Below are positions 42,763 to 64,000 of a stretch of 64,000 nt of DNA, in pieces. This DNA comes from Sneathiellales bacterium (GTDB lineage: Bacteria > Pseudomonadota > Alphaproteobacteria > JANQFL01), in NCBI GenBank assembly GCA_028277845.1, contig JANQFL010000087.1, forward strand, positions 13,704 to 77,703, written 5' to 3'. The notes under the pieces are model-generated. The model did not search any database and was not told the origin of the DNA. It saw only the letters and a program-made list of their open reading frames with translations. A program made the translations under genes and the position numbers. Within the stretch, counting starts at the first letter, position 1. Each line of letters opens with the position of its first letter.

Positions 42763-42780
42763 CCGGTTCTATCCGCCCGC

Positions 42781-43128
42781 TCAGTCGATTTTTTCCACGA
42801 AGACTTGAATCTTACCGCCGCAGGCCAGGCCCACTTCCCAGGCCTCGCTGTTGCTGACGCCGAATTCCAGCAGCCGGGGTTTGCCCTCCTGGATGACTTC
42901 CTGGGCTTCCTGCACGACGGCGCCTTCGATGCAACCGCCGCTAACTGATCCCGCCATCTGGCCGTCCTCGTCGATGGCCAGCAGGCTGCCGACCGGCCGA
43001 GGGGCCGATCCCCAGGTCGATACGACCGTCGCCAGAGCGACTTGCTTGCCGTCGCGGGTCCACGTTGCGGCTTTCTCCAAAATATCGTCGTGGCCGCCGG
43101 GATCGATGGTCGCTGTCGCCTGTGTCAT
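42781..43128 (-). CDS. XdhC/CoxI-family accessory protein, N-terminal domain (split gene)
   Basis: XdhC N-terminal-like motif (VALATVVSTWGSAPRPVGSLLAI); start at Met 7 gives ATGA overlap with the coxE stop. Confidence 0.6.
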   Translation of the reverse strand: MTQATATIDPGGHDDILEKAATWTRDGKQVALATVVSTWGSAPRPVGSLLAIDEDGQMAGSVSGGCIEGAVVQEAQEVIQEGKPRLLEFGVSNSEAWEVGLACGGKIQVFVEKID

Positions 43129-44339
43129 GCCGCTTGTGTGCTCCATTCCGAGACGCTTTCTTCGGTCCGCGGGCCCTGTTTCATCAAGGCATCCGCCAGG
43201 TCCTGCAGACTATTCAAGTTATGAACCGGCCGGAAATCGTCAACATGGGGAAGAATGGCCTGTATGCCCTTTGATTTGGGCTCGAAGCCGCTGTAACGCA
43301 ACAAGGGATTAAGCCAGATCAGCCGACGGCACGACTTGTGCAGCCGCTCCATCTGGCTGTCCAGGCCTTCGCCGGCGTCCCGGTCCAAACCGTCGCTGAT
43401 CAGCAGCAATACGGCGCCTTGCCCCAGAACCCGGCGCGACCAAACGGTGTTGAACTCTTTCAGGCATTCGCCGATGCGGGTGCCGCCGGACCAGTCCTCG
43501 ACCACTTCGCCGACCTTTTGCAGCGCTACGTCGACGTCGCTTTGCCGCAGATACCGGGTCACGTTGGTCAAACGGGTGCCGAAAGTAAAGGTATGCACCC
43601 GGTCCCGGTCGTTGGTGATGGCGTGCAGGAAATGCAGGAACATGCGCGAATAGTGGCTCATGGAGCCGGACACGTCGCACAGGATGACCAGCGGCGGGTG
43701 CCGGAGCGAGCGGGATCGCCGGCGCAACGGGATCTGGCTGCCGCCGGTACGCAGGCCTGCACGCATGGACCGGCGCATATCGATGCGCGGGCCACTGGGA
43801 TCGGCGACGAACCGCCGGGTCGGCACCTGCATGATGGGCAGGCGCATGCGGGCGATGATGGCCTTGGCCTTGGCAATTTCCTCGGCGGACATGGATTCGA
43901 AATCCATGGTGCGCAGCATTTCCTTGTCGGAATAGGTCAGGGTGGCATCGAGCTCGACCTCCCGCTCATCACCTTCGCGCTCGCTGACATCCGGCGTATC
44001 GCCGAACATGGCATCGGCAAGACGCTTGTCGCCGGCCGCCTTCTCCTTTTCCTCGCCTTCGGTCCGCACGGTCGGCAGCAGCATGGCCATGGCCTTTTCC
44101 AGCATCTGCGGATTGCGCCAGAAGACATGAAATGCTTGATCGAACAACTCGCGCTGGTCGCGCCGGTTGACGAACACGCAGTGCAGGGCCCAGTAGAAAT
44201 CCTGACGGTTTTCCAGCCCGGCCGCCTCGACCGCGCGGACGGCGTCGATCACCCGGCCGGGTCCGACCGGCAGACCGGCCGCGCGCAAGACCCGCGCGAA
44301 GTACATGATGTTCTCGAAGAGGCGACCGTGCACTGCCAT
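43125..44339 (-). CDS. coxE: VWA-domain CO dehydrogenase accessory protein CoxE
   Basis: C-terminal VWA domain with MIDAS-like DVSGSMS. Confidence 0.75.
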   Translation of the reverse strand: MAVHGRLFENIMYFARVLRAAGLPVGPGRVIDAVRAVEAAGLENRQDFYWALHCVFVNRRDQRELFDQAFHVFWRNPQMLEKAMAMLLPTVRTEGEEKEKAAGDKRLADAMFGDTPDVSEREGDEREVELDATLTYSDKEMLRTMDFESMSAEEIAKAKAIIARMRLPIMQVPTRRFVADPSGPRIDMRRSMRAGLRTGGSQIPLRRRSRSLRHPPLVILCDVSGSMSHYSRMFLHFLHAITNDRDRVHTFTFGTRLTNVTRYLRQSDVDVALQKVGEVVEDWSGGTRIGECLKEFNTVWSRRVLGQGAVLLLISDGLDRDAGEGLDSQMERLHKSCRRLIWLNPLLRYSGFEPKSKGIQAILPHVDDFRPVHNLNSLQDLADALMKQGPRTEESVSEWSTQAA

Positions 44340-44354
44340 GGAACTGCCGCCGCT

Positions 44355-45275
44355 CTACTTGGGTGCTGCCGCCATCTCCTGGTCGATGGCTTTCAGCATG
44401 TTGGCGGCCTCGCTGCCCTGAACCTTGGCGATATCGTCCTGGTATTTGAGCAGCGCGCCGAGGGTGTTGTTGACCGTCTCGGGGTCGAGCACCATGACGT
44501 CCAGTTGCTGCAGGGCCTTGGCCCAATCGATGGTCTCGGCGATGCCGGGCAGTTTGAACAGGTCGCCGGTGCGCAGTTTCTGCACGAAGGCGACGATCTG
44601 TTCGGCCAGACGCTCATCCGCACCGGGCACCTTGCGCTCGAGGATTTCCAGTTCGCGGGCGGCATCCGGGTAGTCGACCCAGTGATACAGACAACGCCGC
44701 TTCAGGGCGTCGTGAATCTCGCGGGTCCGGTTCGAGGTGACGATGACGATGGGCGGTTCCGGGGCTTTGATGGTGCCGATTTCCGGGATGGTGATCTGGT
44801 TGTCGGCCAGGACCTCGAGCAGGAAGGCCTCGAACGCCTCGTCGGAGCGGTCCAGTTCGTCGATCAGCAGCACGGGCGCGCCGCCGGCATGAGGTTCGAG
44901 CGCCTGCAATAGGGGCCGCTCGATCAGGAACTTGCGGGAGAAGATGTCCTTGCTGAGCACGTCGCGGTCGGTGACTCCTTCCGCCTCCGCCAGGCGGATT
45001 TCGATCATCTGGGCTTGGTAATTCCATTCGTAGACGGCGGAAGCGGAATCCAGGCCCTCGTAACACTGCAGACGGACCAGATCGCGGCCCAGAACCTCCG
45101 AGAGGACCTTGGCGATTTCGGTCTTGCCGACCCCGGCTTCCCCTTCCAGGAACAACGGGCGTTGCAGCGATAGGCTGAGGTAAAGCGTCGTCGCCAGAGA
45201 GCGGTCGGAGACATAGTCCCCTTCGGTCAGCATGGCCAGGGTGTCGTCAACGGATGAGGGCAGGGGTCGTGTCAT
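44355..45275 (-). CDS. coxD: MoxR-like AAA+ ATPase CoxD
   Basis: Walker A GEAGVGKT and Walker B LLIDELDR. Confidence 0.8.
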   Translation of the reverse strand: MTRPLPSSVDDTLAMLTEGDYVSDRSLATTLYLSLSLQRPLFLEGEAGVGKTEIAKVLSEVLGRDLVRLQCYEGLDSASAVYEWNYQAQMIEIRLAEAEGVTDRDVLSKDIFSRKFLIERPLLQALEPHAGGAPVLLIDELDRSDEAFEAFLLEVLADNQITIPEIGTIKAPEPPIVIVTSNRTREIHDALKRRCLYHWVDYPDAARELEILERKVPGADERLAEQIVAFVQKLRTGDLFKLPGIAETIDWAKALQQLDVMVLDPETVNNTLGALLKYQDDIAKVQGSEAANMLKAIDQEMAAAPK

Positions 45276-45401
45276 CGGGGCACCGGTACAGATCGGACAA
45301 ACGGAAACGAGGGGAGGCGGTGCCTCCCCTCGTTCAACTTAGTGACGAATCCCCCTGCCGACCAGCCCAAAAGGCCTATTTCGGCTAAGGATTCCGCGTC
45401 A

Positions 45402-46199
45402 TCAGCCGCCCGCGGCGTCCGCCGCCCGGCCGGCCATGACCTTGACCAGATGGGCGCGGTATTCCGGCGTGGCGTGAATATCGCTATTGAGGCCATCGGC
45501 GGATACCGAAGCGCCGTCCAACGCCGACGACGACAGACCACCGGCCAGAGCCTGTTCCAGCGAGGACGCCCGGAACACACACGGTCCCGCGCCGGTCACG
45601 GCCACGCGCACGCCGCCGCCGGTCTTGGCCACCATGACACCTACTAGGGCATAACGGGATGCCGGATTGTGGAACTTCTGGTAATTGGCTGCCTCCGGAA
45701 CCGGGAAGGAAACCGAGGTGATCAGTTCCCCTTCTTCCAACGCGGTTTCGAACATGCCGGTGAAGAAGTCATCCGCGGCGATGCTACGCTTGTTGGTGTT
45801 GACCGTGGCGTTGAGTCCGAGCACCGCCGCCGGATAGTCCGCCGCCGGGTCGTTGTTGGCGATGGAGCCCCCGATGGTGCCACGGTTGCGGACCTGGGGG
45901 TCGCCAATGCCGCCGGCGAGGGCGGCGAGGGCGAGAATGGCCGCAGCCACATCGCCGGATGCCGCCACGTCGGCGTGCCTGGTCATGGCGCCGATGGTCA
46001 CCGAATCGCCGGACACGGTAATGCCCTGCAATTCGGATACACCGGACAGGTCGACCAAGTCGGACGGCGCCGCCAGACGCTGTTTCAGCGTCGGGATCAG
46101 CGTCTGTCCACCGGCAAGGAAACTGCCGTCTTCTGCGCCCGCCGCTGCTGCAGCCGCATCAGCGACACTGCCGGGCTTGTGATATTGAAAGTCATGCAT
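45402..46199 (-). CDS. coxM: CO dehydrogenase/xanthine dehydrogenase-family FAD-binding medium subunit
   Basis: FAD-binding LAGGQTLIP motif and medium-subunit C-terminal region. Confidence 0.8.
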   Translation of the reverse strand: MHDFQYHKPGSVADAAAAAAGAEDGSFLAGGQTLIPTLKQRLAAPSDLVDLSGVSELQGITVSGDSVTIGAMTRHADVAASGDVAAAILALAALAGGIGDPQVRNRGTIGGSIANNDPAADYPAAVLGLNATVNTNKRSIAADDFFTGMFETALEEGELITSVSFPVPEAANYQKFHNPASRYALVGVMVAKTGGGVRVAVTGAGPCVFRASSLEQALAGGLSSSALDGASVSADGLNSDIHATPEYRAHLVKVMAGRAADAAGG

Positions 46200-46211
46200 G
46201 ATTCGCTTCCC

Positions 46212-48575
46212 TTATTCCGCAGCAGCCTTGGCGCTGTTCAGTGTCTGCCAAACCTTCAAAGGCGTGGCCGGCATGTCGATGTCGGCACCGATGGCATCGG
46301 TCACGGCGTTGATCACCGCGGCCGGCGAGGCGATGGCGCCCGCTTCGCCCGCACCCTTGACGCCCAACGGATTGAGAGGCGAGGGAACCGGCGACATGCC
46401 GATGTCGATGCTGGGCAGGTCGTCGGCCCGCGGCATGGCGTAATCCATGTACGAACCGGTGACCAACTGGCCGCTATCGTCGTCGTAGACGCAGCCTTCC
46501 AGCAACGCCTGGCCGACGCCCTGGGCGATACCGCCATGGACCTGGCCTTCGACGATCATCGGATTGATGACGTTGCCGAAATCGTCGACCGCAGAATACT
46601 TGATGATATCGACGACGCCGGTATCGGGATCGACTTCCACCTCGGCGATATGCACACCCGACGGGAAGGAGAAGTTGAGCGGATCATAGAACGCGGTTTC
46701 GTCCAGACCCGGCTCGAGGCCTTCCGGATAGTTGTGCGGGACATAGGCCGCAAAGGCGACTTCGCCGATATTCATGGCCTTATCGGTACCGGCCACCGAG
46801 AAATTGCCGCCCGAGAACTCTATGTCCTCCTCGGCGGCTTCGAGCGCGTGCGCCGCGATCTTCTTGCCTTTCTCGATGATCTTGTCGGCTGCCTTCATGA
46901 TAGCGGAGCCGCCGACGGCGATCGACCGGGAACCGTAGGTGCCCATCCCGAACGGACCCTTGTCGGTGTCGCCTTCGACGACCTCGACGTTTTCGTAGGG
47001 CACGCCTAGTTTGTCTGCGACCACCTGGGCGAACGTCGTGGCGTGGCCCTGGCCGTGGCTGTGGGTACCGGCCAAAACGGTCACATTGCCGGTCGGGTTG
47101 AAGCGGATTTGCGCCGCCTCCCACAGACCGACGCCGCCGCCCAGCGCACCGACCGCCGCCGACGGCGCGATGCCGCAGGCTTCGATGTAGGCGCTCAGGC
47201 CGACACCGCGCAGCTTGCCGCGCGATTGCGCATCCGCCTTACGGGCCGCCAGGCCGTCATAATCGGCCAGCTTGAGAGCTTCCTCGAGGGCCTTGGGGTA
47301 ATCGCCGCAGTCGTAGGTGTGCACGACCGGTGTCTCGTACGGGAACGCGTCATTGGGAATGAAGTTCCGCCGGCGGATTTCCGCCGGATCCAAGCCCATT
47401 TCCCGGGCCGCATTCTCGACCAAGCGCTCGACCACATAGGTCGCTTCCGGCCGTCCGGCGCCGCGATAGGCATCCACCGGTGACGTGTTGGTGTAGACAC
47501 CCTTGACCTCGGCATAGATGACCGGCGTGGTGTACTGGCCGGCCAGCAACGTGGCGTACAGGTAGGTCGGCACCGCCGACGCGAAGGTCGACAGATAGGC
47601 GCCCAGATTGGCGATGGTGCTGACCCGCATGGCGATGAACTTGCCGTTCTCGTCCATGGCCATTTCGGCGTGGGTCACGTGGTCGCGGCCGTGGGCGTCG
47701 GAGAGGAACGATTCGGACCGTTCCGCCACCCACTTGATCGGCCGGTTGACCCGGCGCGAGGCCCAAAGCGTGGCCGTTTCCTCGGCATAGACGAAGATCT
47801 TCGAGCCGAAGCCGCCGCCCACATCCGGCGCGATCACGCGCAGTTTGTGTTCCGGCGCGACCTGCAGGAAGGCCGACATGATCAGACGGCAGACATGCGG
47901 ATTCTGGCTGGTGGTGTACAGCGTCATGTCCTCGGTGCCGGGGTCGTACTCGGCAACCGCTGCCCGCGGCTCCATGGCGTTGGGAATCAGCCGGTTGTTG
48001 ATCATGTCCAAGGATGTGACGTGATGGGCCTTCGAGAACGCCTCGTCGACCACCGCCTTGTCGCCCAGCTCCCAGTCGTAGCAGATGTTGCCGGGGATAT
48101 CGGCGTGGATCTGTGGCGCACCGGCCGCGGCGGCACCGGCGGTATCGGTCACGCTCGGCAGTTCGTCGTAGTCGACCTCGACCAACTCGGCGGCATCTTT
48201 CGCCTGGTTGTAGGTGTCAGCAACCACGATGGCGACATGGTCGCCGACATAGTTGACCTTGTCGACGGCGAGGGCCGGGTGCGCCGGCGCGTTCATCGGC
48301 GATCCGTCCTTGGAGCTGATCATCCAGCCGCAGATCAACGGGCCGATGCCGTCGGCGGCCATTTCCTGGCCGGTCAGAACGGCGACCACACCCGGCGCGG
48401 CCGCGGCGGCGCTGGTGTCGACGCCATTGATCTTGGCGTTGGCGTACGGCGAACGGACGAAGTAGGCGTAAGCCTGTCCGGGCCTGTTGATGTCGTCGAG
48501 ATAGTTGCCCTTGCCGGTCAGGAAGCGTTGGTCTTCCTTACGGACGGTGCGGGTGCCAATTCCATTGTCAGCCAT
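46212..48575 (-). CDS. coxL: aerobic-type CO dehydrogenase large subunit, form II (molybdopterin-binding)
   Basis: 787 aa molybdopterin-binding subunit; active-site loop AYRGAGR (47451-47471) is the form II signature rather than AYRCSFR of form I. Confidence 0.85.
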
Positions 48576-52960: not shown

Positions 52961-53057
52961 CGATAGACGGTACGTTCCCACACGAAATGTGTTGTGATGA
53001 TTGCGTTGCGGCCGACATTGGCGGGAGCGCAACGAATTGCTGCAAGGACGACCAGCG

Positions 53058-53891
53058 ATGAGCAAGAAGACGGAAACACTCGAAGTCCGCGTGTCACCGG
53101 AACTGAAGGCCAGATTCACGGCCGTAAGCCGGGAGCGAGGCCAGCCCATGAGCCATATCATCCGGCATTTGATGCAACAGGAAATCGATTCGTATGCGCC
53201 AGACCCTCACCAGCACGGAGTACGCGCTATGAATTCATGGAAATTACACCGGTTCGGCACCATCGCAGCATCGGGACTCGTCGTTCTAGGCTTGGCACTC
53301 GCCATGAACGCGGCCACCCAGTCCACCGTTTCGGCCCGGGCGGACGTTCGCGTGACGTTTGCCGAAATGGACGTCAACGACGACGGCAAGATCACACAAC
53401 AGGAATACGAAACGTTCTGGAAGCAGATGGAGGAAGACTTCGAGCAGGAAGAGGACATTGCTCACGCGGACGACACTCCCGCGGCGTGCAAGGCCGATTT
53501 CGCCAAACTCGAAGAACTGGACCGCCATCACGGCCACGACCAATACCGTTATGATTTCTCGGCGGTCGACGGCAACAAGGATGGCGCCGTTCGTTATGCC
53601 GAGCTACAGTCCGCCTTCGACGTGATGCACACGGCCGAATTCCGGGAGATCGACCGGAACCAGGACGCGTTCCTGGACACCGGCGAACTCATGCGGGCTT
53701 TTCAGGAAGACGAACCCAGCCTCAGCAAGGCCTGTAAGGACGCCATGCTCGAATCCCACCCGGATGCGTTCGAGTTTCACGAAGACGATGCGCGGTTGAT
53801 CCTGGCGCAATTCGACGAAAACCGCGACCGGAAGATCAGCTTGCAGGAGTTTATCGAAAATCAGCCCGCCGATATCGGTTTCGGCGACTGA
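53058..53891 (+). CDS. predicted RHH (CopG-like) domain fused to a transmembrane helix and a periplasmic EF-hand domain; alternatively a signal-peptide EF-hand protein starting at 53229
   Basis: In-frame N-terminal RHH-like segment (LEVRVSPELKARFTAVSRERGQPMSHIIRHLMQQEI) with AAGGA RBS, then a hydrophobic helix with positive residues on the N-side, then canonical EF-hand loops (DVNDDGKITQQE, DGNKDGAVRYAE, DENRDRKISLQE). Confidence 0.5.
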   Translation: MSKKTETLEVRVSPELKARFTAVSRERGQPMSHIIRHLMQQEIDSYAPDPHQHGVRAMNSWKLHRFGTIAASGLVVLGLALAMNAATQSTVSARADVRVTFAEMDVNDDGKITQQEYETFWKQMEEDFEQEEDIAHADDTPAACKADFAKLEELDRHHGHDQYRYDFSAVDGNKDGAVRYAELQSAFDVMHTAEFREIDRNQDAFLDTGELMRAFQEDEPSLSKACKDAMLESHPDAFEFHEDDARLILAQFDENRDRKISLQEFIENQPADIGFGD

Positions 53892-53968: not shown

Positions 53969-54940
53969 TCATTCCGCCTTCTTTTTCATCTTCTCAAGCT
54001 GCTTTTTGAACTGCTCGCACGGATCGTTCGTGTCGACCCTGGGCGTGAACCACACGAAGTCGAATTTGTCCGCGTCTTCGTACGCGGCGATGTCCGTGGC
54101 ATCGTGGGAAACCTCGCGAAATCCGACACTGACAACGGTTCCATCCGGATCGATGATGCGCAGATAGAAGGGTACGCCACGATCCAACCTGGCGTGGCCG
54201 GCGCCGGTAATGAGAACGGCGCCGTCACGGCTCCCACCGTAGACCATGCGCTCCGACATCACCGCGTCGCGTGCACGCTGCACACGGGCAATGGCTGGAA
54301 CCGCATTGGGCGGTATCTGGTTGCAGTGAGACACGACGATTTCGTCCTCGAGTTCTTTCTGCAGCACTTCGGGAAACGGCTTGTCCAGCCCGGATTTACC
54401 GACCAAGTCCTGACCGAGGACAGCAAATCCCTGACGGGCGACACCGCGGTTGTTCTTACGCGGCAGGTTGGCCGCTACGACAGTCGCTCCGGCGGCGACA
54501 GCCGCATCGGCAATCGGTTGGTAGTTGGACCAGTCGGGCCAGCCGGATCGTTTCCATTCAATCCGTTCTCCGAGCCTACCCGCATCCGAATGCCCCTCGG
54601 ACAAATACGCGTCGATGACCGGCTGCTTGTCGGTTTCGATCATTTCGAAAGCCAAATCGGGCCGCCGGCCAGTGGCATAGACCGTCCGTGCCAGTTTGGC
54701 CTGAAGTCGGTGGTGATCGCGGTTGTCATGTTTCTCCCCAAGCAGAACATACCTGGCCCGCCGGACCGCGGCGGCGACGTCTTCCGCGGTGACAAACTGT
54801 TGCGTGCGTGTGGACCATATCTTGCCAATCAAGGGATGATCGGCGAGCGCCGAGTGATGCCAGTCGGACGCATCGGCCGAAAGCGGCCATACGAAGGCCA
54901 GAAGCGCGACAAGGAAGCCTTTGAACCCGCGCCTAGGCAT
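53969..54940 (-). CDS. ChaN-family (haem-binding/Tiki-like) periplasmic protein
   Basis: Signal peptide from internal Met (MPRRGFKGFLVALLAFVWPLSADA) and ChaN-like motif YVLLGEKHDNRDHH. Confidence 0.55.
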   Translation of the reverse strand: MPRRGFKGFLVALLAFVWPLSADASDWHHSALADHPLIGKIWSTRTQQFVTAEDVAAAVRRARYVLLGEKHDNRDHHRLQAKLARTVYATGRRPDLAFEMIETDKQPVIDAYLSEGHSDAGRLGERIEWKRSGWPDWSNYQPIADAAVAAGATVVAANLPRKNNRGVARQGFAVLGQDLVGKSGLDKPFPEVLQKELEDEIVVSHCNQIPPNAVPAIARVQRARDAVMSERMVYGGSRDGAVLITGAGHARLDRGVPFYLRIIDPDGTVVSVGFREVSHDATDIAAYEDADKFDFVWFTPRVDTNDPCEQFKKQLEKMKKKAE

Positions 54941-56615
54941 AATAAAGCAGCAGATAGATGGCGAGCAGGACCGCCACCCACAGTACCGTACTGCCCGTGG
55001 GCCAGGTGCGTGCCAGAATGCCTTGCGGTCCATGATGGCGGAAAACACCGGCAACGATGGTGTCGAGGTTGCGCCGGGTCCAAACGCTTGCCGACTTGTT
55101 GAACTGGACGATGGCATCGGTCAACCGGTCGACGATCACATATCCGAACACCCGGTAGAACCAATCGAAGTCCAGCGTGATGGTCAGCGTGCGTTTCATC
55201 ATCGGCAGCAGCACGAAGAAGGCCAGCCCTGCAAACAACAGCAATTGAAGCATATTGATCACGTGGGCAGCGGTGTACGGCGCGTACTGGACCGGATACG
55301 GCAATAGATCGTAGAGGAACTGGGGCCATAGTCCGATGCCGATGCAGGCCGCCGCGAACAGAATCATGGCGAGCCGCATATTCCACGGCGGATCGGGGGG
55401 CCGCATGCCGGAATCCTTCTGGAAGAACACGAACCACGGGAACTTGATGCCGGCATGCAGGAAGACGCCGGCGGACGCGGCGGTCAGCAGGAACCAGATG
55501 ATGGCCATGTGCTCGTCCGCCGCGCCTTGGCTGATCATGGATTTCGATACGAATCCCGATGTCCACGGGAACGACGAAATGGCCAGGGCACCGATGGTAC
55601 CGCATAGTGCCGTCAGCGGCATGCTTTGAAACAGTCCGCCGAGGTCGGTGCATTTGCGCTTGCCGGTCATGTACAGCACCGCACCGGCCGACATGAGCAG
55701 CAACGCCTTGTAGATGATGTGGGTAAAGGCATGGGCGGCGGCGCCATTCAGGCTCATCTCCGTACCGATGCCGATGCCCGTGACCATGAACCCGACCTGA
55801 TTGACGATGCTGTAGGCGAGAATGCGCCGCATGTCGTTTTCCAGCAGCGCATAGACGATGCCGTAGAACACCATGAAGATGCCGATATAGATCAGGATCT
55901 CGGTGCCGGGAAACCCGCGCATGAGGACATAGACCGCCGTCTTGGTGGTAAAGGCGGAGAGGAACACCGTACCGCTCCACGACGCCTCGGGATAGGCATC
56001 GGGCAGCCAGGCCGAGAGCGGCGGCGCACCGGCGTTGAGCAGGAAACCGGCGAGGATCATCCAGGTCCCGAAACTGTCGGCTTCCATGGCGCCGAAAGCC
56101 AGCGATCCGGTATCCGCCACATGGGCGACGATGCCGGTCATCAGCACGACGCCGCCCAGCAAGTGTATGATCAGATAGCGGATGGAGGCGCGGTAGGCCG
56201 CGGTCGTGGCGGCGCTCCAAATCACCATGGTCGACGCCACCGCCATGATTTCCCAGAACACGAAGGCGGTGAACAGATCACCGGCCATGGCCACGCCGAT
56301 GGCGCTGCCCGCATACACGAACCCCGCGACCAGTTCGACGGTGCGGTCCTGATTGAGCGCGAACAGGCCGCCGCCGAATGCCATGATGGCGAAGATGGTG
56401 GCGAACAGCCGTCCCAGCGAATCGGCCCGGACCGGCTCTATCACGTAGTCGAGGAACGGCAAAGCCGAAACCATGTCGCCCGGCACCTGCCAGATCGCGA
56501 ACAAAGCGAGCAACGGGAGCGCCAGAGTAAACACGGCGCGGATAGTCCGTCCGCCAAATAGAAGCAACGCGGCACCGAGGATCAGGATGAGGCCGGGCGG
56601 AAGGCTAGTCAGCAT
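54933..56615 (-). CDS. proton-pumping antiporter-like subunit (MrpD/NuoL/M/N family)
   Basis: 560 aa polytopic membrane protein with antiporter-module-like helices. Confidence 0.75.
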   Translation of the reverse strand: MLTSLPPGLILILGAALLLFGGRTIRAVFTLALPLLALFAIWQVPGDMVSALPFLDYVIEPVRADSLGRLFATIFAIMAFGGGLFALNQDRTVELVAGFVYAGSAIGVAMAGDLFTAFVFWEIMAVASTMVIWSAATTAAYRASIRYLIIHLLGGVVLMTGIVAHVADTGSLAFGAMEADSFGTWMILAGFLLNAGAPPLSAWLPDAYPEASWSGTVFLSAFTTKTAVYVLMRGFPGTEILIYIGIFMVFYGIVYALLENDMRRILAYSIVNQVGFMVTGIGIGTEMSLNGAAAHAFTHIIYKALLLMSAGAVLYMTGKRKCTDLGGLFQSMPLTALCGTIGALAISSFPWTSGFVSKSMISQGAADEHMAIIWFLLTAASAGVFLHAGIKFPWFVFFQKDSGMRPPDPPWNMRLAMILFAAACIGIGLWPQFLYDLLPYPVQYAPYTAAHVINMLQLLLFAGLAFFVLLPMMKRTLTITLDFDWFYRVFGYVIVDRLTDAIVQFNKSASVWTRRNLDTIVAGVFRHHGPQGILARTWPTGSTVLWVAVLLAIYLLLYYA

Positions 56616-56859
56616 CGTAGTAACGATCCTTCCGCTTCAAGAACACGCCCAGCCCCTTGGCGAAAAACACCATGACCGCGCAGGTCACAAAGCCGTACCA
56701 GGAAAAGAACCCGAACGTTCCATCGAGCCCGAAATGCGGGTGGCCGACGAGCCAGATGTCGGCAAGGACAAACAGGGCAAGCCCCGCCAGCCCGCCACGC
56801 CAGAGCCAGCGGATCGTGTTGGGCCGGACCAGCCAATGCAGGTCTTGTTGCTTGCTCAT
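56605..56859 (-). CDS. small hypothetical membrane protein
   Basis: 84 codons from internal Met (MSKQQDLHWLVRP...), two predicted TM helices, overlapping-stop arrangement between two antiporter-like genes. Confidence 0.35.
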   Translation of the reverse strand: MSKQQDLHWLVRPNTIRWLWRGGLAGLALFVLADIWLVGHPHFGLDGTFGFFSWYGFVTCAVMVFFAKGLGVFLKRKDRYYDAD

Positions 56860-58337
56860 TGCGGCATTCCCGTCAAAAAGCGCGCCAGGGTCAATGGCAA
56901 ATCGGGCGTGAACGCGAGAACGACCGTACCTGCCGCGGTCAATGTGAGCGCCGCGACACAGGTCCACGGGGCTTCGCCGTGATCATGGTCGTGACCATGG
57001 CCATGGGATTGGTCCGACGCATGTCCATCCTCGGGCTTGAAAAACGCGGCGTAGATGATCGGAACGAAATATCCGGCGTTCAATAGCGTACTGATGATCA
57101 AAACACCCGCGGCCACCATTTGGCCGCTATCGACCGCACCCATCAGGATGTACCACTTGCTGATGAAACCGGCCGTCGGTGGCAATCCGATCATGGACAG
57201 GGCGGCCACGGCGAAGGCGCCCATGGTCCATGGCATGCGCCGGCCGATGCCGTTGAGCTGGCTGACCTCCGTCTTGTGGCTGGCGACCAGTATGGCGCCG
57301 GCGCAAAAAAACAGCGTGATCTTGCCGAACGCATGCATGGCGACATGCAGGGTGCCGCCGACGATCCCCAGCGGCGTGGCCAGCATGGCGGCCAGAACGA
57401 TGTAGGACAACTGGCTCACCGTGGAGTAGGCGAGGCGCCGCTTGATATTGTCCTGGCGCAGGGCGACCAGAGACGCGATCACGATGGTGGCCCCGGCCAG
57501 ATAGACGAAGAACTGCCCGGAAGCCAGACCGGACACCACGTCGATCCCGAACACATAGACGACCACCTTGAGCACCGAGAATACGCCGGCCTTGACCACG
57601 GCCACGGCATGCAGCAAGGCACTGACCGGCGTCGGCGCCACCATGGCGGCCGGCAACCAGCGATGGAACGGCATGACGGCCGCCTTGCCGATGCCGAAGA
57701 CGTACAGAGCCAGCAGGACGGATAGGACGGTGCCCGATGCGCCCTGGCCGAAAATACCGCCGTCCTGGAAGTCGAGGGTGCCCGCCAAGTGCATGGTCCA
57801 GATGACCGCCGGCAGCAGGAAACCGATGGACGTGGCCAAAAGAATGCCCAGATAGGTCCGGCCGCCGGCCTTGGCGTTGTCGGTGCCGGCGTGGGTCACC
57901 AGCGGATAGGTGGACAGGGTCAGGACTTCGTAGAACACCAGCAGCGAAAACAGGTTGCCGGAAAACGCGACGCCGATGGCCGCCGAGATGGCGATGGCGA
58001 AACACACATAAAAACGGGTCTGGTTCTGCTCGTTATGTCCGCGCATGTAGCCGATGGCGTAGACCGAGGTCACGATCCACAAGAAACTGGCGACCAGGGC
58101 GAACAGCATGCCCAGGGGTTCGAGTGTGAACGAAAGCGTAATCGCGGGCAGCACTTCGAACAGCAACACCGCCGGCCGCTGGCCGTCCATAACGCCGGAC
58201 ACCAGGGAGGCCACGGTCAGAAACGTGATGGTCGCCGTGGACAGGGTGACGGCTTCACGCAGGTTCGGTGAGCGCCCGGTCACGGCGATCAGCACCGCGC
58301 CGATGAGCGGCGCCACGAACGCAACGATCATCGCCAT
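56856..58337 (-). CDS. proton-pumping antiporter-like subunit (MrpD/NuoM-like) with His-rich segment near the C-terminus
   Basis: Polytopic membrane protein of the MrpD/NuoM type; HASDQSHGHGHDHDHGEAP at ~56966-57025. Confidence 0.75.
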   Translation of the reverse strand: MAMIVAFVAPLIGAVLIAVTGRSPNLREAVTLSTATITFLTVASLVSGVMDGQRPAVLLFEVLPAITLSFTLEPLGMLFALVASFLWIVTSVYAIGYMRGHNEQNQTRFYVCFAIAISAAIGVAFSGNLFSLLVFYEVLTLSTYPLVTHAGTDNAKAGGRTYLGILLATSIGFLLPAVIWTMHLAGTLDFQDGGIFGQGASGTVLSVLLALYVFGIGKAAVMPFHRWLPAAMVAPTPVSALLHAVAVVKAGVFSVLKVVVYVFGIDVVSGLASGQFFVYLAGATIVIASLVALRQDNIKRRLAYSTVSQLSYIVLAAMLATPLGIVGGTLHVAMHAFGKITLFFCAGAILVASHKTEVSQLNGIGRRMPWTMGAFAVAALSMIGLPPTAGFISKWYILMGAVDSGQMVAAGVLIISTLLNAGYFVPIIYAAFFKPEDGHASDQSHGHGHDHDHGEAPWTCVAALTLTAAGTVVLAFTPDLPLTLARFLTGMPQ

Positions 58338-58345
58338 CTGGTCCG

Positions 58346-59827
58346 TCACGGCGCGAGTCCCAACAATTGCACCGCCGCTTGCTTGGCCACCGACACCGAC
58401 AGGTCCGTGTGAATGCCGAAATAGACGTTGGCGCCGATCAGCACCCAAGTCGGAATGAGCATGGAGAGCGGTGCTTCCTCGACGGTCGTCGCGCCGTCAG
58501 GCGATGGCCGGAAATAGGCCGCTTCCACCACCCGCCAGACATACACGACCGCAAGCAGCGACCCGACAAGCACGATCACGGCCGCCGGCCACCAGCCTTT
58601 TTCCATGGCACCCAGCAGCAGGTACCATTTGGACACGAAGCCCGCCGTCAACGGCACACCGATCAGACTGAGCCCGCCGATGACGAAAGCGAACATGGTC
58701 AGCGGCATGCGCCGTCCGGCGCCGGCGACCTGCTCGATACTGGTGGCGCCCAGCCGATAGGCGATGCAACCCAGAGCCATAAACAGGCCGCCTTTCATCA
58801 AGGCGTGGTTGAACAGGTGCAGGATGCCCGCGGTCAGGCCGCTGACATTCACCATGGCGATACCGAACACCATGTAGCCGATCTGCGCCACACTGGAATA
58901 GGCCAGCATGCGTTTCAGGTTGTTCTGGAAAATGGCGACGGTCGACGCCGTCAGGATGGCAAGCGACGCCAGGAAGATCAGGATGGGCGATTCCGGCAGG
59001 AATTCGAACGTGAAGAACTTGCCGAACACCGTGAACATGAAGCGCAGCATGACGTAGACCGAAACCTTGGTCGCCGTTGCCGCCAGAAACGCCGACACCA
59101 TCGACGGCGCGAAGGTGTACGCGTTCGGCAGCCACAAATGCAGCGGAAACAAGGCCAGCTTCAAGCCGACACCGACGAAGATAAATGCGGCCGCCGCGAC
59201 CGTGGTCGGCGAGGTCGAGACCGCCTCGATACGCACCGCCATGTCGGCGATGTTCAGGGTGCCGGTCATCATGTAGATCAAGCCGATGCCGATGAGGATA
59301 AACGTGGCACCGATGGTACCCATCACCAGGTACTGGAACGCCGCGGTCAACGCCCGCCGGTCGCGCCCCATGGCGATCAGGGCGTAGGACGACAGAGAGG
59401 AAATCTCCAGGAAAACAAAGATGTTGAAAGCATCGCCGGTGATGGTGATGCCGAGCAAACCGGTCAAACACAACAGAAATGCGGAATAGAACAGGACCTG
59501 CTTGTCCTCGGGAATTTCCTTCTCGACGCTGGCCCTGGCGAAAGTAGCGACTATGGCGGCTATGGCCGAAACGATCAGCAGCACGAAAGCATTGATCTTG
59601 TCGACCCTGTATTCGATGCCCCACGGCGGCGCCCAGTCACCGATGGCATACGATATCTCGCCGGCGTCCATGACCTGACCCAGCAGGGCGACGGATATGG
59701 CCAGGGCGAACCAGCTGACGGCAAAGGAAATGAACCAGGCCACCGTACCGTTGCGGAACAGAACCACGAACGGGGCCGCCATGAGCGGCACGACCACCTG
59801 CAATATCGGGAAGTGCGCGGCGATCAT
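58346..59827 (-). CDS. proton-pumping antiporter-like subunit (MrpA N-terminal/MrpD/NuoL-like)
   Basis: 493 aa polytopic membrane protein of the same family; first of three consecutive paralogs. Confidence 0.75.
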   Translation of the reverse strand: MIAAHFPILQVVVPLMAAPFVVLFRNGTVAWFISFAVSWFALAISVALLGQVMDAGEISYAIGDWAPPWGIEYRVDKINAFVLLIVSAIAAIVATFARASVEKEIPEDKQVLFYSAFLLCLTGLLGITITGDAFNIFVFLEISSLSSYALIAMGRDRRALTAAFQYLVMGTIGATFILIGIGLIYMMTGTLNIADMAVRIEAVSTSPTTVAAAAFIFVGVGLKLALFPLHLWLPNAYTFAPSMVSAFLAATATKVSVYVMLRFMFTVFGKFFTFEFLPESPILIFLASLAILTASTVAIFQNNLKRMLAYSSVAQIGYMVFGIAMVNVSGLTAGILHLFNHALMKGGLFMALGCIAYRLGATSIEQVAGAGRRMPLTMFAFVIGGLSLIGVPLTAGFVSKWYLLLGAMEKGWWPAAVIVLVGSLLAVVYVWRVVEAAYFRPSPDGATTVEEAPLSMLIPTWVLIGANVYFGIHTDLSVSVAKQAAVQLLGLAP

Positions 59828-60183
59828 GGTTCATCGTCCATGTGCTGGATCTCATCTTCCTCGGTCGTACCGTAGGATTCGTTGATGCGCACGATGAAGG
59901 ACAGACCCAGTGCCGTGGTGGCCACGCCGACAACGATCGCCGTCAGAATAAGGACGTGAGGCAGGGGATTGGAGAACACTTCGGGCTTACCGCTGAGAAT
60001 GGGCGCGGTGCCGCCTTCCACCTTGCCCATGCTGATATACAGCAGAAACACCGATGCCTGAAAAATGTTCAAGCCAACGATCTTTTTGACCAGGTTGCCC
60101 CGGGCCACGACGGTGTAGAACCCGGCCATCATGAGAAAGATGGCGATCCAGTAGTTGTAGTGTTCCAGAAACGCCGTCATCAC
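59824..60183 (-). CDS. mrpC: Na+/H+ antiporter subunit C (MrpC/NuoK-like)
   Basis: 119 aa, three TM helices, NuoK-like sequence (IGLNIFQASVFLLYI). Confidence 0.75.
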   Translation of the reverse strand: MMTAFLEHYNYWIAIFLMMAGFYTVVARGNLVKKIVGLNIFQASVFLLYISMGKVEGGTAPILSGKPEVFSNPLPHVLILTAIVVGVATTALGLSFIVRINESYGTTEEDEIQHMDDEP

Positions 60184-60596
60184 CGGCCCCGTCCGGTAAA
60201 CATCAGGAACACCATGATCATGACGGCGGCAACCGTGATACCGACACCCAATTCAATGAGCAGAATGCCCAGGTGCTGCCCGGCGACGCCGTCGGCCCGC
60301 AACACGCTGTAGTTCAGGAAATTGCCGCCGTTGATCATACCGACCACGCCCACCGAGGCGTACAACAGCAAGCCGAACGCCATCAGGGCCTGCAGCACCC
60401 TCGGCGGCGTCACCTTGACCGCGTTCTCGCGGCCGAAAATCAGTGCATACAGAATGAAGCCGGCGGCGAAGATGACTCCGGCCTGGAAACCGCCGCCCGG
60501 TCCGAAGTCGCCATGAAACTGAACGTACAGGCCGAACAACAGAATAAACGGGATCAGAAGCTTGGAGACGACACGGAGGACGAGATGATGCCTCAT
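60180..60596 (-). CDS. mrpB: Na+/H+ antiporter subunit B (MrpB/MnhB domain)
   Basis: MnhB-domain motif GPGGGFQAGVIFA. Confidence 0.75.
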   Translation of the reverse strand: MRHHLVLRVVSKLLIPFILLFGLYVQFHGDFGPGGGFQAGVIFAAGFILYALIFGRENAVKVTPPRVLQALMAFGLLLYASVGVVGMINGGNFLNYSVLRADGVAGQHLGILLIELGVGITVAAVMIMVFLMFTGRGR

Positions 60597-61063
60597 ACAC
60601 CGTCCTCCTTGTCACTGTCCCGGCGGCGCTTGCGCCCGCCCAGCATCAGCATGACACCGACGCCGGCGGTAAAGATTACCGTGACTTCACCCATGGTGTC
60701 GTAACCGCGATAGCTGGCCAGCACGGCGGTGACGATATTGGGCACGTCGATCTTTTCGGGCGTTTCCTCGATATAGCGCGGCGCCACGTGCGTATGGACC
60801 GGCGCGTCGGGATCGCCGAACGCCGGCATGCCCGTCGTGGCGTATAACAGGATGCCACCGGTCAACAGCACCACGGCCAGCGGCAGGAACGCGCCGTGAG
60901 TCGGGATCTTTTCCCGGCTGCGGGTGAGGTGCAGAGTACCCAGCATCAAAACGGTCGAAATACCGGCCCCGACGGCGGCTTCGGTAAACGCTACGTCGAC
61001 GGCATCCAGTACGACGAACGCACCGGCCATCAACAGGCTGTAGATGCCGGACAGCATAACCAC
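60593..61063 (-). CDS. MrpA C-terminal-domain-like / MbhD-like (DUF4040-type) membrane protein
   Basis: 156 aa hydrophobic protein located where Mbh-type operons carry MbhD; assignment is positional plus composition. Confidence 0.45.
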   Translation of the reverse strand: MVMLSGIYSLLMAGAFVVLDAVDVAFTEAAVGAGISTVLMLGTLHLTRSREKIPTHGAFLPLAVVLLTGGILLYATTGMPAFGDPDAPVHTHVAPRYIEETPEKIDVPNIVTAVLASYRGYDTMGEVTVIFTAGVGVMLMLGGRKRRRDSDKEDGV

Positions 61064-61140
61064 CGCGAACAGATTGCGCAGCCGGATGATGGCAATCGCG
61101 GTGATGACGAGAAACGCCAGCAGAATGATATCGACGAAGG

Positions 61141-61464
61141 TTACGATGACATGTCTTCCTTCTTCGCCGTAAGAGGACGCAATCCGGCGCTCAGCGCTGC
61201 GTTGGCCAGTGCGTAGGACGATGTCGGGCTGGTCACGAACAGGAATACAAGGATCAGGATCAGTTTGACCGTGATCAGCGTGAATCCGCTTTGCAGCGCC
61301 AGCCCCAATATGATCAGGCCGGCTCCGAGCGTGTCGGTGATGCCGGCGCCATGCATACGCGAGAACAGATCAGGCAGGCGCAGCACGCCCAGACCGCCGA
61401 TCATGGCAAACAATCCGCCACCGACGATCGCGATCCAACTGAAGATATCGAGCACCGTTTCCAT
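61141..61464 (-). CDS. mrpG: Na+/H+ antiporter subunit G (MrpG/MnhG)
   Basis: MnhG-like N-terminus (IAIVGGGLFAMIGGLGVLRLPDLFSRMH). Confidence 0.75.
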   Translation of the reverse strand: METVLDIFSWIAIVGGGLFAMIGGLGVLRLPDLFSRMHGAGITDTLGAGLIILGLALQSGFTLITVKLILILVFLFVTSPTSSYALANAALSAGLRPLTAKKEDMSS

Positions 61465-61468
61465 GGGA

Positions 61469-61771
61469 TCAGTCGTTCTCCCCGGCGGACGGATGGCCGA
61501 GGTCGCCGAATTTGAGAAACTTGAGCACCGCGATGATGCCGACGAAGTTGATCAGGGCGTACACAAGCGCGATATCGAGGAAGTCGGGCCGGCCGGTCAG
61601 AAATCCCAATACGGAAATCAACAGGACTGTTTTGGTGCCGAACATATTGACCGCCAAAATGCGGTCGAACACCGTCGGTCCGAGCAGGGCGCGGAGGATC
61701 GCCATGAACATGGTGACAAGCACGGCCAGCGCGGCGGCCAAATACATCAACGATCCGTCAATCATCGGCAT
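61469..61771 (-). CDS. mrpF: Na+/H+ antiporter subunit F (MrpF)
   Basis: 100 aa, three TM helices, MrpF-like. Confidence 0.7.
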   Translation of the reverse strand: MPMIDGSLMYLAAALAVLVTMFMAILRALLGPTVFDRILAVNMFGTKTVLLISVLGFLTGRPDFLDIALVYALINFVGIIAVLKFLKFGDLGHPSAGEND

Positions 61772-62240
61772 GGCCTTCGATGGCGGTCACCTTGCGATCC
61801 ATGGAGCCTTCTTCCAGGTCGGCGATGCCGCCGCCGGTCAGGGCATGGACGAGAATTTCGTCGTCGAGAACACGCAGGGAAACGGTGCCGGGTGTAAGGG
61901 TAATCGAATTGGCATAGATTACCCGGCCGAGGTCCGATCGTTGCGTGCAGGGGATCTGTTTGACCGTCGGATCGATCGGCAGAGACGGTGCGAGAATGCG
62001 CCGCGCCACATCGATGTTGGACAAAACGATCTGCCAGACCAGCCATGGCAGATAGGACGCGGAACGCCATCCGATATGAATAGGATGGCCTTCATGATCG
62101 ATCACGTCCATTCGGGCAGCAATCAGCACGACGCCGACGCACGACAGGACGCCCAACGTGATCAATAAACCGGTGAAATAGCCGGAAAGGAGTAGCCAGG
62201 TGGCGAATAGGAACGCCGCCAAACTAACTGCACGAAACAA
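61758..62240 (-). CDS. mrpE: Na+/H+ antiporter subunit E (MrpE/MnhE)
   Basis: MnhE-like motif ITLTPGTVSL; first gene of the module. Confidence 0.7.
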   Translation of the reverse strand: MFRAVSLAAFLFATWLLLSGYFTGLLITLGVLSCVGVVLIAARMDVIDHEGHPIHIGWRSASYLPWLVWQIVLSNIDVARRILAPSLPIDPTVKQIPCTQRSDLGRVIYANSITLTPGTVSLRVLDDEILVHALTGGGIADLEEGSMDRKVTAIEGHADD

Positions 62241-62493
62241 AATCCGACCTCTCTTTTACTGCCTGAACATGGCGCTTGTAATGTGACGATTCCATGTTCT
62301 GCCCGCATTTTGTGCGCGGAACATAATATGTTGCGAAAGAATCATTCAATGGAAATCGTTCGTCGGTGTATATAAAGCTGATATCGCTGGTATTTGTTTC
62401 AAGTTGTGTGCTTACTTTCGTTATACGGTTTATTTGAGACACAAAGAAAACCGTGTTAAGCTTCGGCATTCACGGGAGGAAAGAGCGCCAGTA

Positions 62494-63027
62494 ATGGAAG
62501 AGCGGGAAGTCAACCCGGAAGGCGCCCGGCAGGAAACTGTTGAGATAAACGGCACTGTTAAGTGGTTCAACAGGGTTAAGGGCTTCGGGTTTATTGTGCC
62601 AGTAGATGGCACCGGGGATGTATTTCTTCATTTATCTGCTTTGAGACAAGCCGGATACGACGCGGTCGATGAAGGCGCGACCGTGCGGTGCGAGGCAATC
62701 GAAAGAGATAAAGGACTGCAAGCGGTACGCGTGCTGGACGTCGACACCAGCACGGCCATTACTTCCGTGGAAGCGACCGAATCGGCGTCTTCCAAATTTC
62801 CTCCGGTAGACGCGGAAGGCGATTTCATGGAAGCCAAAGTCAAATGGTTCAACCGAACCAAGGGATATGGCTTCGTGACGCGCGGCGAGGGCACGCGCGA
62901 CGTGTTCGTCCACATGGAAACGCTGCGCCGCATGGGTATTTTGGAATTGCAGCCCGGCCAGGACGTCCGGGTGCGTATTGGGAACGGGCCCAAGGGCCCT
63001 CAGGTCGCCGAAATCGAAACAACCTGA
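62494..63027 (+). CDS. tandem cold-shock-domain protein (two CspA-like domains)
   Basis: Two CSDs with RNP1-like motifs ([12 protein letters not shown] and [12 protein letters not shown]); start at Met 31 of the ORF with GGAGG RBS; ~250 nt AT-rich leader upstream. Confidence 0.85.
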
Positions 63028-63082: not shown

Positions 63083-64000
63083 CTATTTCAACTCCACGGC
63101 ATAGTCGGCGATCGGCAGTGCCTTGCCGATCTGCTTCTGTTCGACCAGGAACCTGGCAAAGCGCGCGTACCGCGCGCTGTCCAGCGATGCCGGCCGCAAG
63201 GCGAATCGGGGCAGGGTGTCCTTCCAGGCCCGGCGGTTCAATTCATCGTCCAGGTCCTTGTGGGCCTTGATGAACAATTGCCAGCTCTCATCGGGGTGAT
63301 TGACCAGATACTGCACGGCCCGTTCCAGGGCATCCAGGAAACGCCGGTTCTTGCCGTCCGTCACCTTGTCTTTGTGGGCCACCAAAATCAGTTCGTCATA
63401 GGCCGGTACACCTTCCTCCTCCACATAGAAGGCACGGCCGGGCCGTTTGACGATGTCCATCTGATTGAGCTCGAAATTGCGGAAGGCGCCGATCACGGCA
63501 TCGACCTGGCCGCTGATCAGCGACGGCGAAAGGCTGAAATTGACATTGACCAGGGTAATGTCTTTGAGGCCCAATCCGTGCCGCGCCAGCATGGCCGCCA
63601 GCAAGGCGTCTTCAAACCCGCCAACGGAAAAACCGACCTTTTTACCTTTCAGGTCGGCGATCGACCGGATCGGGCTTTCTTTCAACACTACAAGGCTGTT
63701 CAAGGGTGTCGCCACCAAAGTGCCAATACGGCGCAACGGGAGGCCCTGGTCGACCTGGACATGCAGTTGAGGCTGGTACGACACGGCCAGATCCGCTTTG
63801 CCGGCGGCCACCAGCTTGGGCGGCAGGTTGGGATCGGCCGGCGGGATCAGTTCGACTTCCAACCCGGCGTCCTTGAAGTAGCCCTTTTCCTGGGCCACGA
63901 TCAGCGTCGCATGGTCGGGATTGACGAACCAGTCCAGCAAAACGGTCAACTTGTCCGCGCCGTGCGCAAATGTCGACACCGTCATGGCGGCGGCCAGAAC
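63083..64000 (-). CDS. periplasmic substrate-binding protein (NMT1/THI5-like, nitrate/sulfonate/bicarbonate-type ABC transporter), 5' end beyond window
   Basis: Reading frame continues to the window end with a signal-peptide-like N-terminus; NMT1-like core (KVGFSVGGFEDALLAAMLARHGL). Confidence 0.65.
   Translation of the reverse strand, partial: VLAAAMTVSTFAHGADKLTVLLDWFVNPDHATLIVAQEKGYFKDAGLEVELIPPADPNLPPKLVAAGKADLAVSYQPQLHVQVDQGLPLRRIGTLVATPLNSLVVLKESPIRSIADLKGKKVGFSVGGFEDALLAAMLARHGLGLKDITLVNVNFSLSPSLISGQVDAVIGAFRNFELNQMDIVKRPGRAFYVEEEGVPAYDELILVAHKDKVTDGKNRRFLDALERAVQYLVNHPDESWQLFIKAHKDLDDELNRRAWKDTLPRFALRPASLDSARYARFARFLVEQKQIGKALPIADYAVELK

Follow-up and report, generated by a model that had tools for sequence, protein, structure and literature searches.

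Is a set of membrane subunits that resembles part of a hydrogenase-type complex, reported without a catalytic module, the detached arm of a larger enzyme or a transporter in its own right? The question is raised by a gene cluster from a Sneathiellales bacterium, located at positions 53969 to 62240 (minus strand) of a 64,000-nucleotide stretch of contig JANQFL010000087.1 (hereafter the window). A preliminary description of this DNA had recognized an Mrp-like antiporter module in the gene order of Mbh complexes and noted that modules with this order usually couple to a hydrogenase-like catalytic module, absent from the locus. The analysis presented here makes it likely that the locus specifies a stand-alone group 3 Mrp-type (CPA3) monovalent cation/proton antiporter of ten membrane subunits; it is not the orphan arm of a hydrogenase-like enzyme. 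We regard as established the points that carry this reading: the gene content and its conserved order, the key residues, the fold of one of the large subunits (D3), the homology of part of the cluster to rhizobial "green" complex I and the absence of a linked redox module.

An eleven-gene operon with an Mrp core

Six-frame open reading frames (ORFs) and hidden Markov model (HMM) scans, with Pfam and NCBIfam as the profile libraries for family assignment, identified eleven consecutive genes on the minus strand between 62240 and 53969 (nt, nucleotides; aa, amino acids; values in exponent form are E-values):

61758-62240, minus: mrpE; PF01899 (MNHE) 4.2e-30; TTG start, with a GAGAGG Shine-Dalgarno-like motif 7 nt upstream
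61469-61771, minus: mrpF; PF04066 1.4e-19; conserved R27, D36 and R37
61141-61464, minus: mrpG; PF03334 1.1e-24; TIGR01300 77 bits (cut-off 63)
60593-61147, minus: MbhD+MbhE fusion; PF13244 and PF20501; NF009159 above cut-off
60180-60596, minus: mrpB (equivalent to MbhF and to Pyrococcus furiosus MrpB'); PF04039 7.6e-31; NF009162 184 bits (cut-off 120); ATGA overlap with the upstream gene
59824-60183, minus: mrpC (NuoK-like); PF00420 2.9e-22; NF005624 136 bits (cut-off 95)
58346-59827, minus: D1, MrpD/MbhH/MbsH-type; PF00361 1.1e-65
56856-58349, minus: D2; PF00361 6e-57, plus N-terminal PF00662 at 25.3 bits, just above the cut-off of 24.5
56605-56859, minus: 84-aa two-helix membrane protein, invariably encoded between D2 and D3; its start overlaps the D2 stop (ATGA)
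54933-56615, minus: D3; NF009310 696 bits (cut-off 564); PF00361 7e-45
53969-54940, minus: ChaN-family secreted protein, 323 aa; PF04187 1.3e-46, 159.7 bits (cut-off 27.7); cleavable signal peptide MPRRGFKGFLVALLAFVWPLSADA

Start and stop codons overlap or almost touch throughout the series (ATGA, GTGA and, at the overlap between the D3 stop and the ChaN start, ATGCCTAG). As all junctions are of this kind, the eleven genes form a single operon. Some gene bounds were revised in the process: the ChaN gene starts at the ATG at 54940 and not at 55117, the 84-aa gene spans 56605-56859, and the MbhD/E-like gene appears to start at an ATC at 61147 (see below). D2 probably starts at the GTG at 58349, in a GTGA overlap with the D1 stop; an ATG at 58337 is the alternative. 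All eleven genes of the preliminary description were recovered at the positions it gave, and its subunit assignments, small genes included, proved right, each Mrp subunit having its Pfam or NCBIfam match. Its Mbh-type gene order and its count of three antiporter-like subunits were equally confirmed.

The features by which an Mrp/CPA3 system is recognized are present in this set. They comprise homologues of MrpE, MrpF and MrpG, an MrpB domain, an MrpA-C (DUF4040/MbhD/MbhE) domain and MrpC, as well as at least one MrpA/MrpD-type subunit with a glutamate in transmembrane helix (TM) 5 and lysines in TM7, TM8 and TM12; D1 and D2 have the full set, and D3 has all but the TM7 lysine. Conservation extends to the MrpA-C motif DxxxE (YRGYDTMGE) and to the MrpF pair D36/R37. 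The MbhD+MbhE fusion aligns to MrpA residues ~600-800 and to MbhD, MbhE and MbsE and is, by this alignment, the counterpart of the MrpA C-terminal helices TM17-21 and of the protein named MrpB in P. furiosus. Group 3 Mrp systems are described as having no full-length mrpA, one or more mrpD-like genes and an irregular order (PMC8415708, PMC5703873), and the window operon has this make-up. It does not have the full-length MrpA and the A-to-G order of group 1: there is no MrpA of ~800 aa, the E-F-G genes come first, and the NCBIfam MrpA models were matched in part and far below cut-off.

Conservation of the ten-gene order

The distribution of the cluster was assessed by searching D3 against one genome per species and by fetching 80 loci for tblastn comparison with the eleven window proteins. 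The scan identified at least 574 genomes with D3 relatives, the best matches being 64-72% identical. These relatives include Rhodospirillales, Thalassospiraceae, Hyphomicrobiales, Terasakiella, Magnetovibrio, Bradyrhizobium and Accumulibacter; further ones occur in Hydrogenophaga, Thalassotalea, Pseudoalteromonas, Colwellia, Magnetococcales and Longimicrobiales. About 64 of the 80 loci have the first ten genes, from mrpE through the small gene to D3, in the same order and on the same strand (mrpE occupies the same position in 63 related loci), in a range that spans Alpha-, Beta- and Gammaproteobacteria, Magnetococcales and Gemmatimonadota. The exceptions consist of truncated contigs, records with runs of N and one local inversion. 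The latter, in a Magnetospiraceae metagenome-assembled genome (MAG; L016, 9760-17741), places the small gene and D3 on the strand opposite mrpE-D2 and is either a true inversion or a misassembly. Three loci in which the small gene and D3 seemed to form a stand-alone unit (L005, L028 and L063) are accounted for by N-runs or a truncated gene, and the existence of such a unit was dismissed.

The arrangement is not unusual. It is widespread, already annotated and ordinary in databases: D3 (NF009310), the MbhD/E-like protein (NF009159), MrpB (NF009162) and MrpC (NF005624) all pass NCBIfam models that name them already, and public records label D3 "Na(+)/H(+) antiporter subunit D". A literature search for experimental work on the ten-gene arrangement found none.

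A stand-alone gene order without a linked redox module

The closest precedent for the gene order is the stand-alone Mrp of the archaeon P. furiosus, encoded by mrpEFGBB'CD, in which MrpB is an MbhD+MbhE fusion and MrpB' corresponds to MbhF; deletion strains have phenotypes that link this system to pH homeostasis, and its coupling ion is likely Na+ (PMC8415708). The first seven genes of the window operon have the same order and domain make-up, and both systems lack a full-length mrpA and a redox module. They differ in that P. furiosus Mrp has one antiporter-like subunit, whereas the bacterial operon has three plus the 84-aa subunit. Since a stand-alone Mrp has the very order of the window's first seven genes, the E-F-G-first arrangement is no evidence for a missing hydrogenase module.

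The surroundings of the cluster point in the same direction. When ORFs within 5 kilobases (kb) of either side of the cluster were grouped across the 80 loci, no hydrogenase, NuoH/B/C/D or other redox gene was found to recur; the commonest neighbor, a 166-aa ORF for which no family-library scan was made, occurs in only 19 of the 80. Nor does the cluster contain the NuoH-like connector and NuoB/C/D/I-like catalytic subunits of MBH/MBX(MBS)-type systems. No redox module was found among the window ORFs scanned, a non-exhaustive set made of the operon flanks and ten of the largest ORFs outside the operon. PhaC, RecJ, a radical SAM protein and a CoxL/CoxE/MobA set are among the products of these ten, three of which have no family match.

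The membrane arms of MBS/MBX and MBH (PDB 6u8y, 6cfw) resemble the window operon in the gene order of their Mrp-like part. Among solved proteins, those closest in sequence to D1 and D3 are MbsH and MbsH', the latter of which also bears a lateral helix. Unlike them, the window operon has none of the MbsM/J/K/L/N catalytic and connecting subunits, and it specifies three pumps where MBS has two.

Three antiporter-like subunits of different kinds

Three proteins of the operon belong to PF00361: D1 (493 aa), D2 (~497 aa) and D3 (560 aa), with E-values of 1e-65, 6e-57 and 7e-45, respectively. They cross-match one another at only 25-36% identity and appear from their sequences to be old paralogues of different kinds. 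HMM and phmmer scores, signature residues and fold were used as the basis for classifying them.

D1 has MbsH (246 bits), MbhH (208) and MrpD (~180) as its best solved relatives. Its conserved residues are E141 (TM5), K223 (TM7), K254 (TM8), H337/H341/K345 and K400 (TM12), and by these measures it is a canonical MrpD. D2 is of another type. The NCBIfam families that rank next after its own are HyfD, NuoL and MrpA. It conserves E137, K218, H243 and K249 in TM8, H331/H335/K339 and K394; in the TM8 motif (PTPVSALLHAVAVVKAG), H243 is aligned with the TM8 histidine of NdhF and ND5. Histidine plus lysine in TM8 is the MrpA pattern (PMC7419157). D2 stops after the last core helices and has no lateral helix; we classify it, on its residues and scores, as a subunit with MrpA-N/NuoL features. 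A histidine-rich loop (SDQSHGHGHDHDHGE) ahead of its last helix (residues ~436-455, window ~56980-57040) is not conserved among orthologues.

D3 is the most divergent of the three, its closest solved sequence being MbsH' (112 bits). An alignment of 46 sequences showed E122, K225, H295, H299, K303 and K358 to be invariant, and the TM7 lysine to be replaced by an equally invariant asparagine, N194 (window ~56034-56036), which is also found in the green complex I homologue. With this exception, the central charged axis of Lys, Glu and His residues is conserved in D1, D2 and D3. The AlphaFold2 model of D3 (predicted local distance difference test score [pLDDT] 76.7, predicted template modeling score [pTM] 0.78) has a 14-helix core, a 50-residue helix (479-528) and a terminal TM anchor helix (541-559). 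Its top Foldseek matches over the whole length are MrpA (7qru_A and 6z16_A; query TM-score 0.76), NuoL and NdhF, the subunits that bear a lateral helix. As modeled, D3 thus has the architecture of an L/A-type subunit, namely a lateral helix followed by an anchor, and its TM7 asparagine is atypical. The three subunits had been taken for tandem copies of the D type; the TM8 His and Lys of D2, its PF00662 match and the L/A-type architecture of D3 speak otherwise.

Comparison with group 1 and 2 Mrp systems (Bacillus, Anoxybacillus, Dietzia; PDB 7qru, 6z16, 7d3u) shows the same seven functional parts, the same key charged residues and a lateral helix clamping the pumps. In the window operon, by contrast, MrpA is split: a gene of its own encodes the C-terminal part, and D2, the small protein and D3 stand in for the N-terminal pump. 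There are three pumps instead of two, and the E-F-G genes come first. Among other group 3 systems, the cyanobacterial one is encoded by mrpCD1D2EFGAB (PMC5703873), and the locus of Candidatus Nitrospira alkalitolerans is described as having two extra NuoM/NuoL-like genes after mrpD (PMC7784846). Both share with the window operon the lack of a full-length MrpA and the presence of several MrpD-like genes. The cyanobacterial system differs from it in gene order and in having only two pumps.

A module shared with green complex I

The small membrane ORF between the second and third large subunits, already noticed in the preliminary description, has no match in Pfam or NCBIfam models. It is nonetheless a real gene, encoding a conserved subunit that lacks a family model: tblastn matches (43-67% identity) were obtained in 79 of the 80 related loci, with a near-full-length ORF in 76; the family has 616 cluster representatives in a library of 1.8 billion proteins; and the exact 84-aa gene call is present in a public protein collection.

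In a tblastn search of plasmids with D3, the best matches in Sinorhizobium fell within a nuo operon. There, the order is nuoJ, nuoK, a 487-aa "antiporter subunit D family" protein, an 84-aa hypothetical protein, a 586-aa "Na(+)/H(+) antiporter subunit D", nuoM, (nuoN), nuoA-G. The counterpart of the small protein thus has the same length as well as the same position (L081, 8095-8349). Identities to the Sinorhizobium proteins are 55% for D2, 34% for the 84-aa protein and 47% for D3. This operon encodes the green complex I of rhizobia, in which a pair of MrpD-like subunits takes the place of NuoL (PMC9040806, citing Degli Esposti & Martinez-Romero 2016; PMC7415380). Complex_I_3 of Candidatus Manganitrophaceae is a comparable system; the identities given here refer to the Sinorhizobium genes.

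The resemblance extends to D3, whose green complex I homologue also has the TM7 asparagine and a helix plus anchor, and to the site of the genes, between nuoK and nuoM, which is the NuoL position. The likeness to the complex I membrane arm that had been pointed out earlier holds, with a direct basis in the homology of D2, the small protein and D3 with the set that replaces NuoL. In green complex I, the module belongs to a four-pump NADH dehydrogenase that also contains NuoA-K, M and N, and the D3 homologue has a helical C-terminal region longer by ~20 residues; in the window, the module is attached to a redox-free Mrp core, and the two MrpD-like subunits and the 84-aa gene are present without nuoA-K, M and N in the operon. 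Given their homology to the NuoL-replacing genes, D2, the small protein and D3 can be viewed as a portable unit for the NuoL/MrpA-N position. The idea that this unit is a two-pump cassette, moved between a redox-free antiporter and complex I, is partly supported by these similarities.

Proposed function

By analogy with solved Mrp, MBH and MBS structures, MrpE, MrpF, MrpG, the MbhD/E-like protein, MrpB and MrpC would together form the route for Na+ (or K+) and the site of coupling. D1 would be the MrpD pump adjoining this cation module. D2, the 84-aa protein and D3 would make up a distal two-pump module at the position occupied by MrpA-N in ordinary Mrp and by NuoL in complex I, and the lateral and anchor helices of D3 would run back along the arm and clamp it. 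The resulting layout would be EFG / A-C, B, C / D1 / D2 / (small) / D3. Such a complex would export Na+ (or K+) at the expense of the proton-motive force. Having three pairs of proton half-channels where ordinary Mrp has two, it would probably move more protons per cation, an advantage at high pH or high salt.

The number of ions moved per antiporter-like subunit and coupling by the lateral helix are still debated for Mrp and complex I. A widespread Mrp with a third pump, no redox chemistry and a distal module in common with four-pump complex I would offer a simple system for studying the effect of an added pump, and the D2-small-D3 cassette a natural one for studying how such an addition alters ion stoichiometry.

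The ChaN-family gene

The ChaN gene that closes the operon is probably co-transcribed with it. Its exact 323-aa product is present in a public protein collection. Among the related loci, only six have such a gene near D3. It directly follows D3, in otherwise syntenic surroundings, in the window's closest relatives (L082, L084 and L085, with D3 proteins 74-77% identical). In three Rhodospirillaceae MAGs (L011, L012 and L037), a ChaN-family gene lies at most 2 kb from D3, with one or two genes intervening. The space between D3 and the ChaN-family lipoprotein (L011 11711-13251, L012 1719-3257, L037 7900-8370) holds a small membrane protein, DUF4149-like by eye; two of the three MAGs also have there a protein that is PhoD-like, again by eye, from its motif. 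About 76 of the 80 related loci have no ChaN gene beside the cluster, and on this ground we rejected its candidacy as a core subunit: it is a clade-specific addition and not part of the conserved unit.

Alternative interpretations

Several points weigh against the interpretation of the locus as a complete, three-pump antiporter. The sequence covered amounts to 64 kb of a genome, and an unlinked partner may lie elsewhere. The lateral-helix segment of the D3 model is of low confidence (pLDDT 44-76). Without the TM7 lysine, which in other pumps forms a pair with the TM5 glutamate, D3 may pump in an unusual manner. The physical order of the subunits is one that we infer, as are the ion, direction of transport and stoichiometry for this type of operon. 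The particularities of D3 are at the root of one alternative, in which this protein would be a structural clamp or a regulatory or cation-handling subunit, and the complex would have the stoichiometry of an ordinary Mrp or move another ion (K+ or Ca2+). An invariant asparagine in place of the TM7 lysine, in D3 and its green complex I homologue alike, suggests that gating may be different or the role of D3 mainly structural; its divergence from the other two pumps fits as well, and one characterized Mrp catalyzes Ca2+/H+ antiport (review PMC5703873). We consider this alternative unlikely, however, as D3 has kept invariant the TM5 Glu, the TM8 Lys, the His/His/Lys set of TM10-11 and the TM12 Lys, that is, the residues required for a hydrated lateral proton path.

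Another possibility is that the ten proteins form the membrane arm of an Mbh/Mbx- or complex I-like redox-driven pump whose catalytic module is encoded elsewhere. The Mbh/Mbx-type order, the relatedness of D1 and D3 to MbsH and MbsH' and the fact that the D2-small-D3 module operates within a redox enzyme in rhizobia would be in keeping with this. Yet the operon has no NuoH/MbhM-type connecting subunit, no hydrogenase, NuoB/C/D/I or other redox gene recurs in the 80 loci or appears among the sampled window ORFs, and a stand-alone Mrp of the same order is documented (PMC8415708), all of which makes a remote catalytic module very improbable. The role of partner might instead fall to ChaN, as a functional periplasmic component (e.g., a haem/metal-binding accessory or maturation factor) of a unit of eleven. 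Its overlap with D3 in the window, the same-strand PF04187 gene after D3 in the three closest relatives and its presence within 2 kb in three MAGs could be so explained. Against this, ChaN is missing next to the cluster in about 76 of the 80 loci, the spacing between D3 and ChaN ranges from overlap to 1.6 kb, with unrelated genes (the DUF4149-like and PhoD-like ones) sometimes between, and the complex is evidently complete without ChaN in most lineages; we find such a partnership quite improbable. More improbable still, in our estimate, is the broader proposal that the three-pump arm is energized or gated by a partner outside the conserved operon, be it an unlinked redox module or, in this clade, ChaN. 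If true, the complex would be a respiratory or signal-coupled ion pump of a new type. A stand-alone Mrp-type antiporter thus remains the interpretation we favor.

A probable conserved non-canonical start in the MbhD/E-like gene

Taking the first ATG, GTG or TTG as start shortens the MbhD/E-like gene, as its conserved first TM helix (VTFVDIILLAFLVITAIAIIRLRNLFA; region 61064-61144) lies in frame upstream and is not preceded by a canonical start. An ATC at 61147-61145 (minus strand) overlaps the end of mrpG (ATCGTAA). Across 65 orthologous loci, codon -28 is ATC in 38, ATA in 13, ATT in 2 and ATG in 6, and 49 of the 65 have no canonical start before the first helix. A GGAG-like motif is found 7-10 nt upstream of codon -28, and the mrpG stop either overlaps it or is at most 10 nt away. 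The upstream segment shows a coding pattern in its variation by codon position. The 184-aa product of the ATC start matches positions 3-175 (of 178) of NF009159 with 207.8 bits, as against 185 bits for the product of the GTG start. These data point to conserved AUC/AUA/AUU initiation coupled to mrpG termination. A frameshift fusion of mrpG and the MbhD/E-like gene was also considered as the origin of the unstarted helix and was ruled out, since about half of the loci have in-frame stops between codons -30 and -45; the ATG at exactly codon -28 in six loci and the GGAG-like motif ahead of this codon further contradict it.

Two annotation points follow from these analyses. Gene callers routinely truncate the MbhD/E-like gene; the public call for the present contig uses an internal ATG and gives a 154-aa product without the first helix. 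The 84-aa subunit, although conserved, is without a family model.

Genes surrounding the operon

Upstream, a gene for a protein with two cold-shock domains (62404-63027, plus strand) diverges from mrpE and is next to a gene for an NMT1/THI5-like binding protein (63083-63985, minus strand). Both neighbors are retained in the close relative L082. On the other side, a protein with several EF-hand calcium-binding motifs (a weak XopAW-family match) is encoded at 53001-53891 (plus strand), convergent to the ChaN gene. Further away, a cluster for a CoxL-type molybdopterin dehydrogenase, with CoxE-like VWA and MobA-like genes, occupies 40436-48575 (minus strand); Cox-related genes are also found near the operon in L082 and L084.

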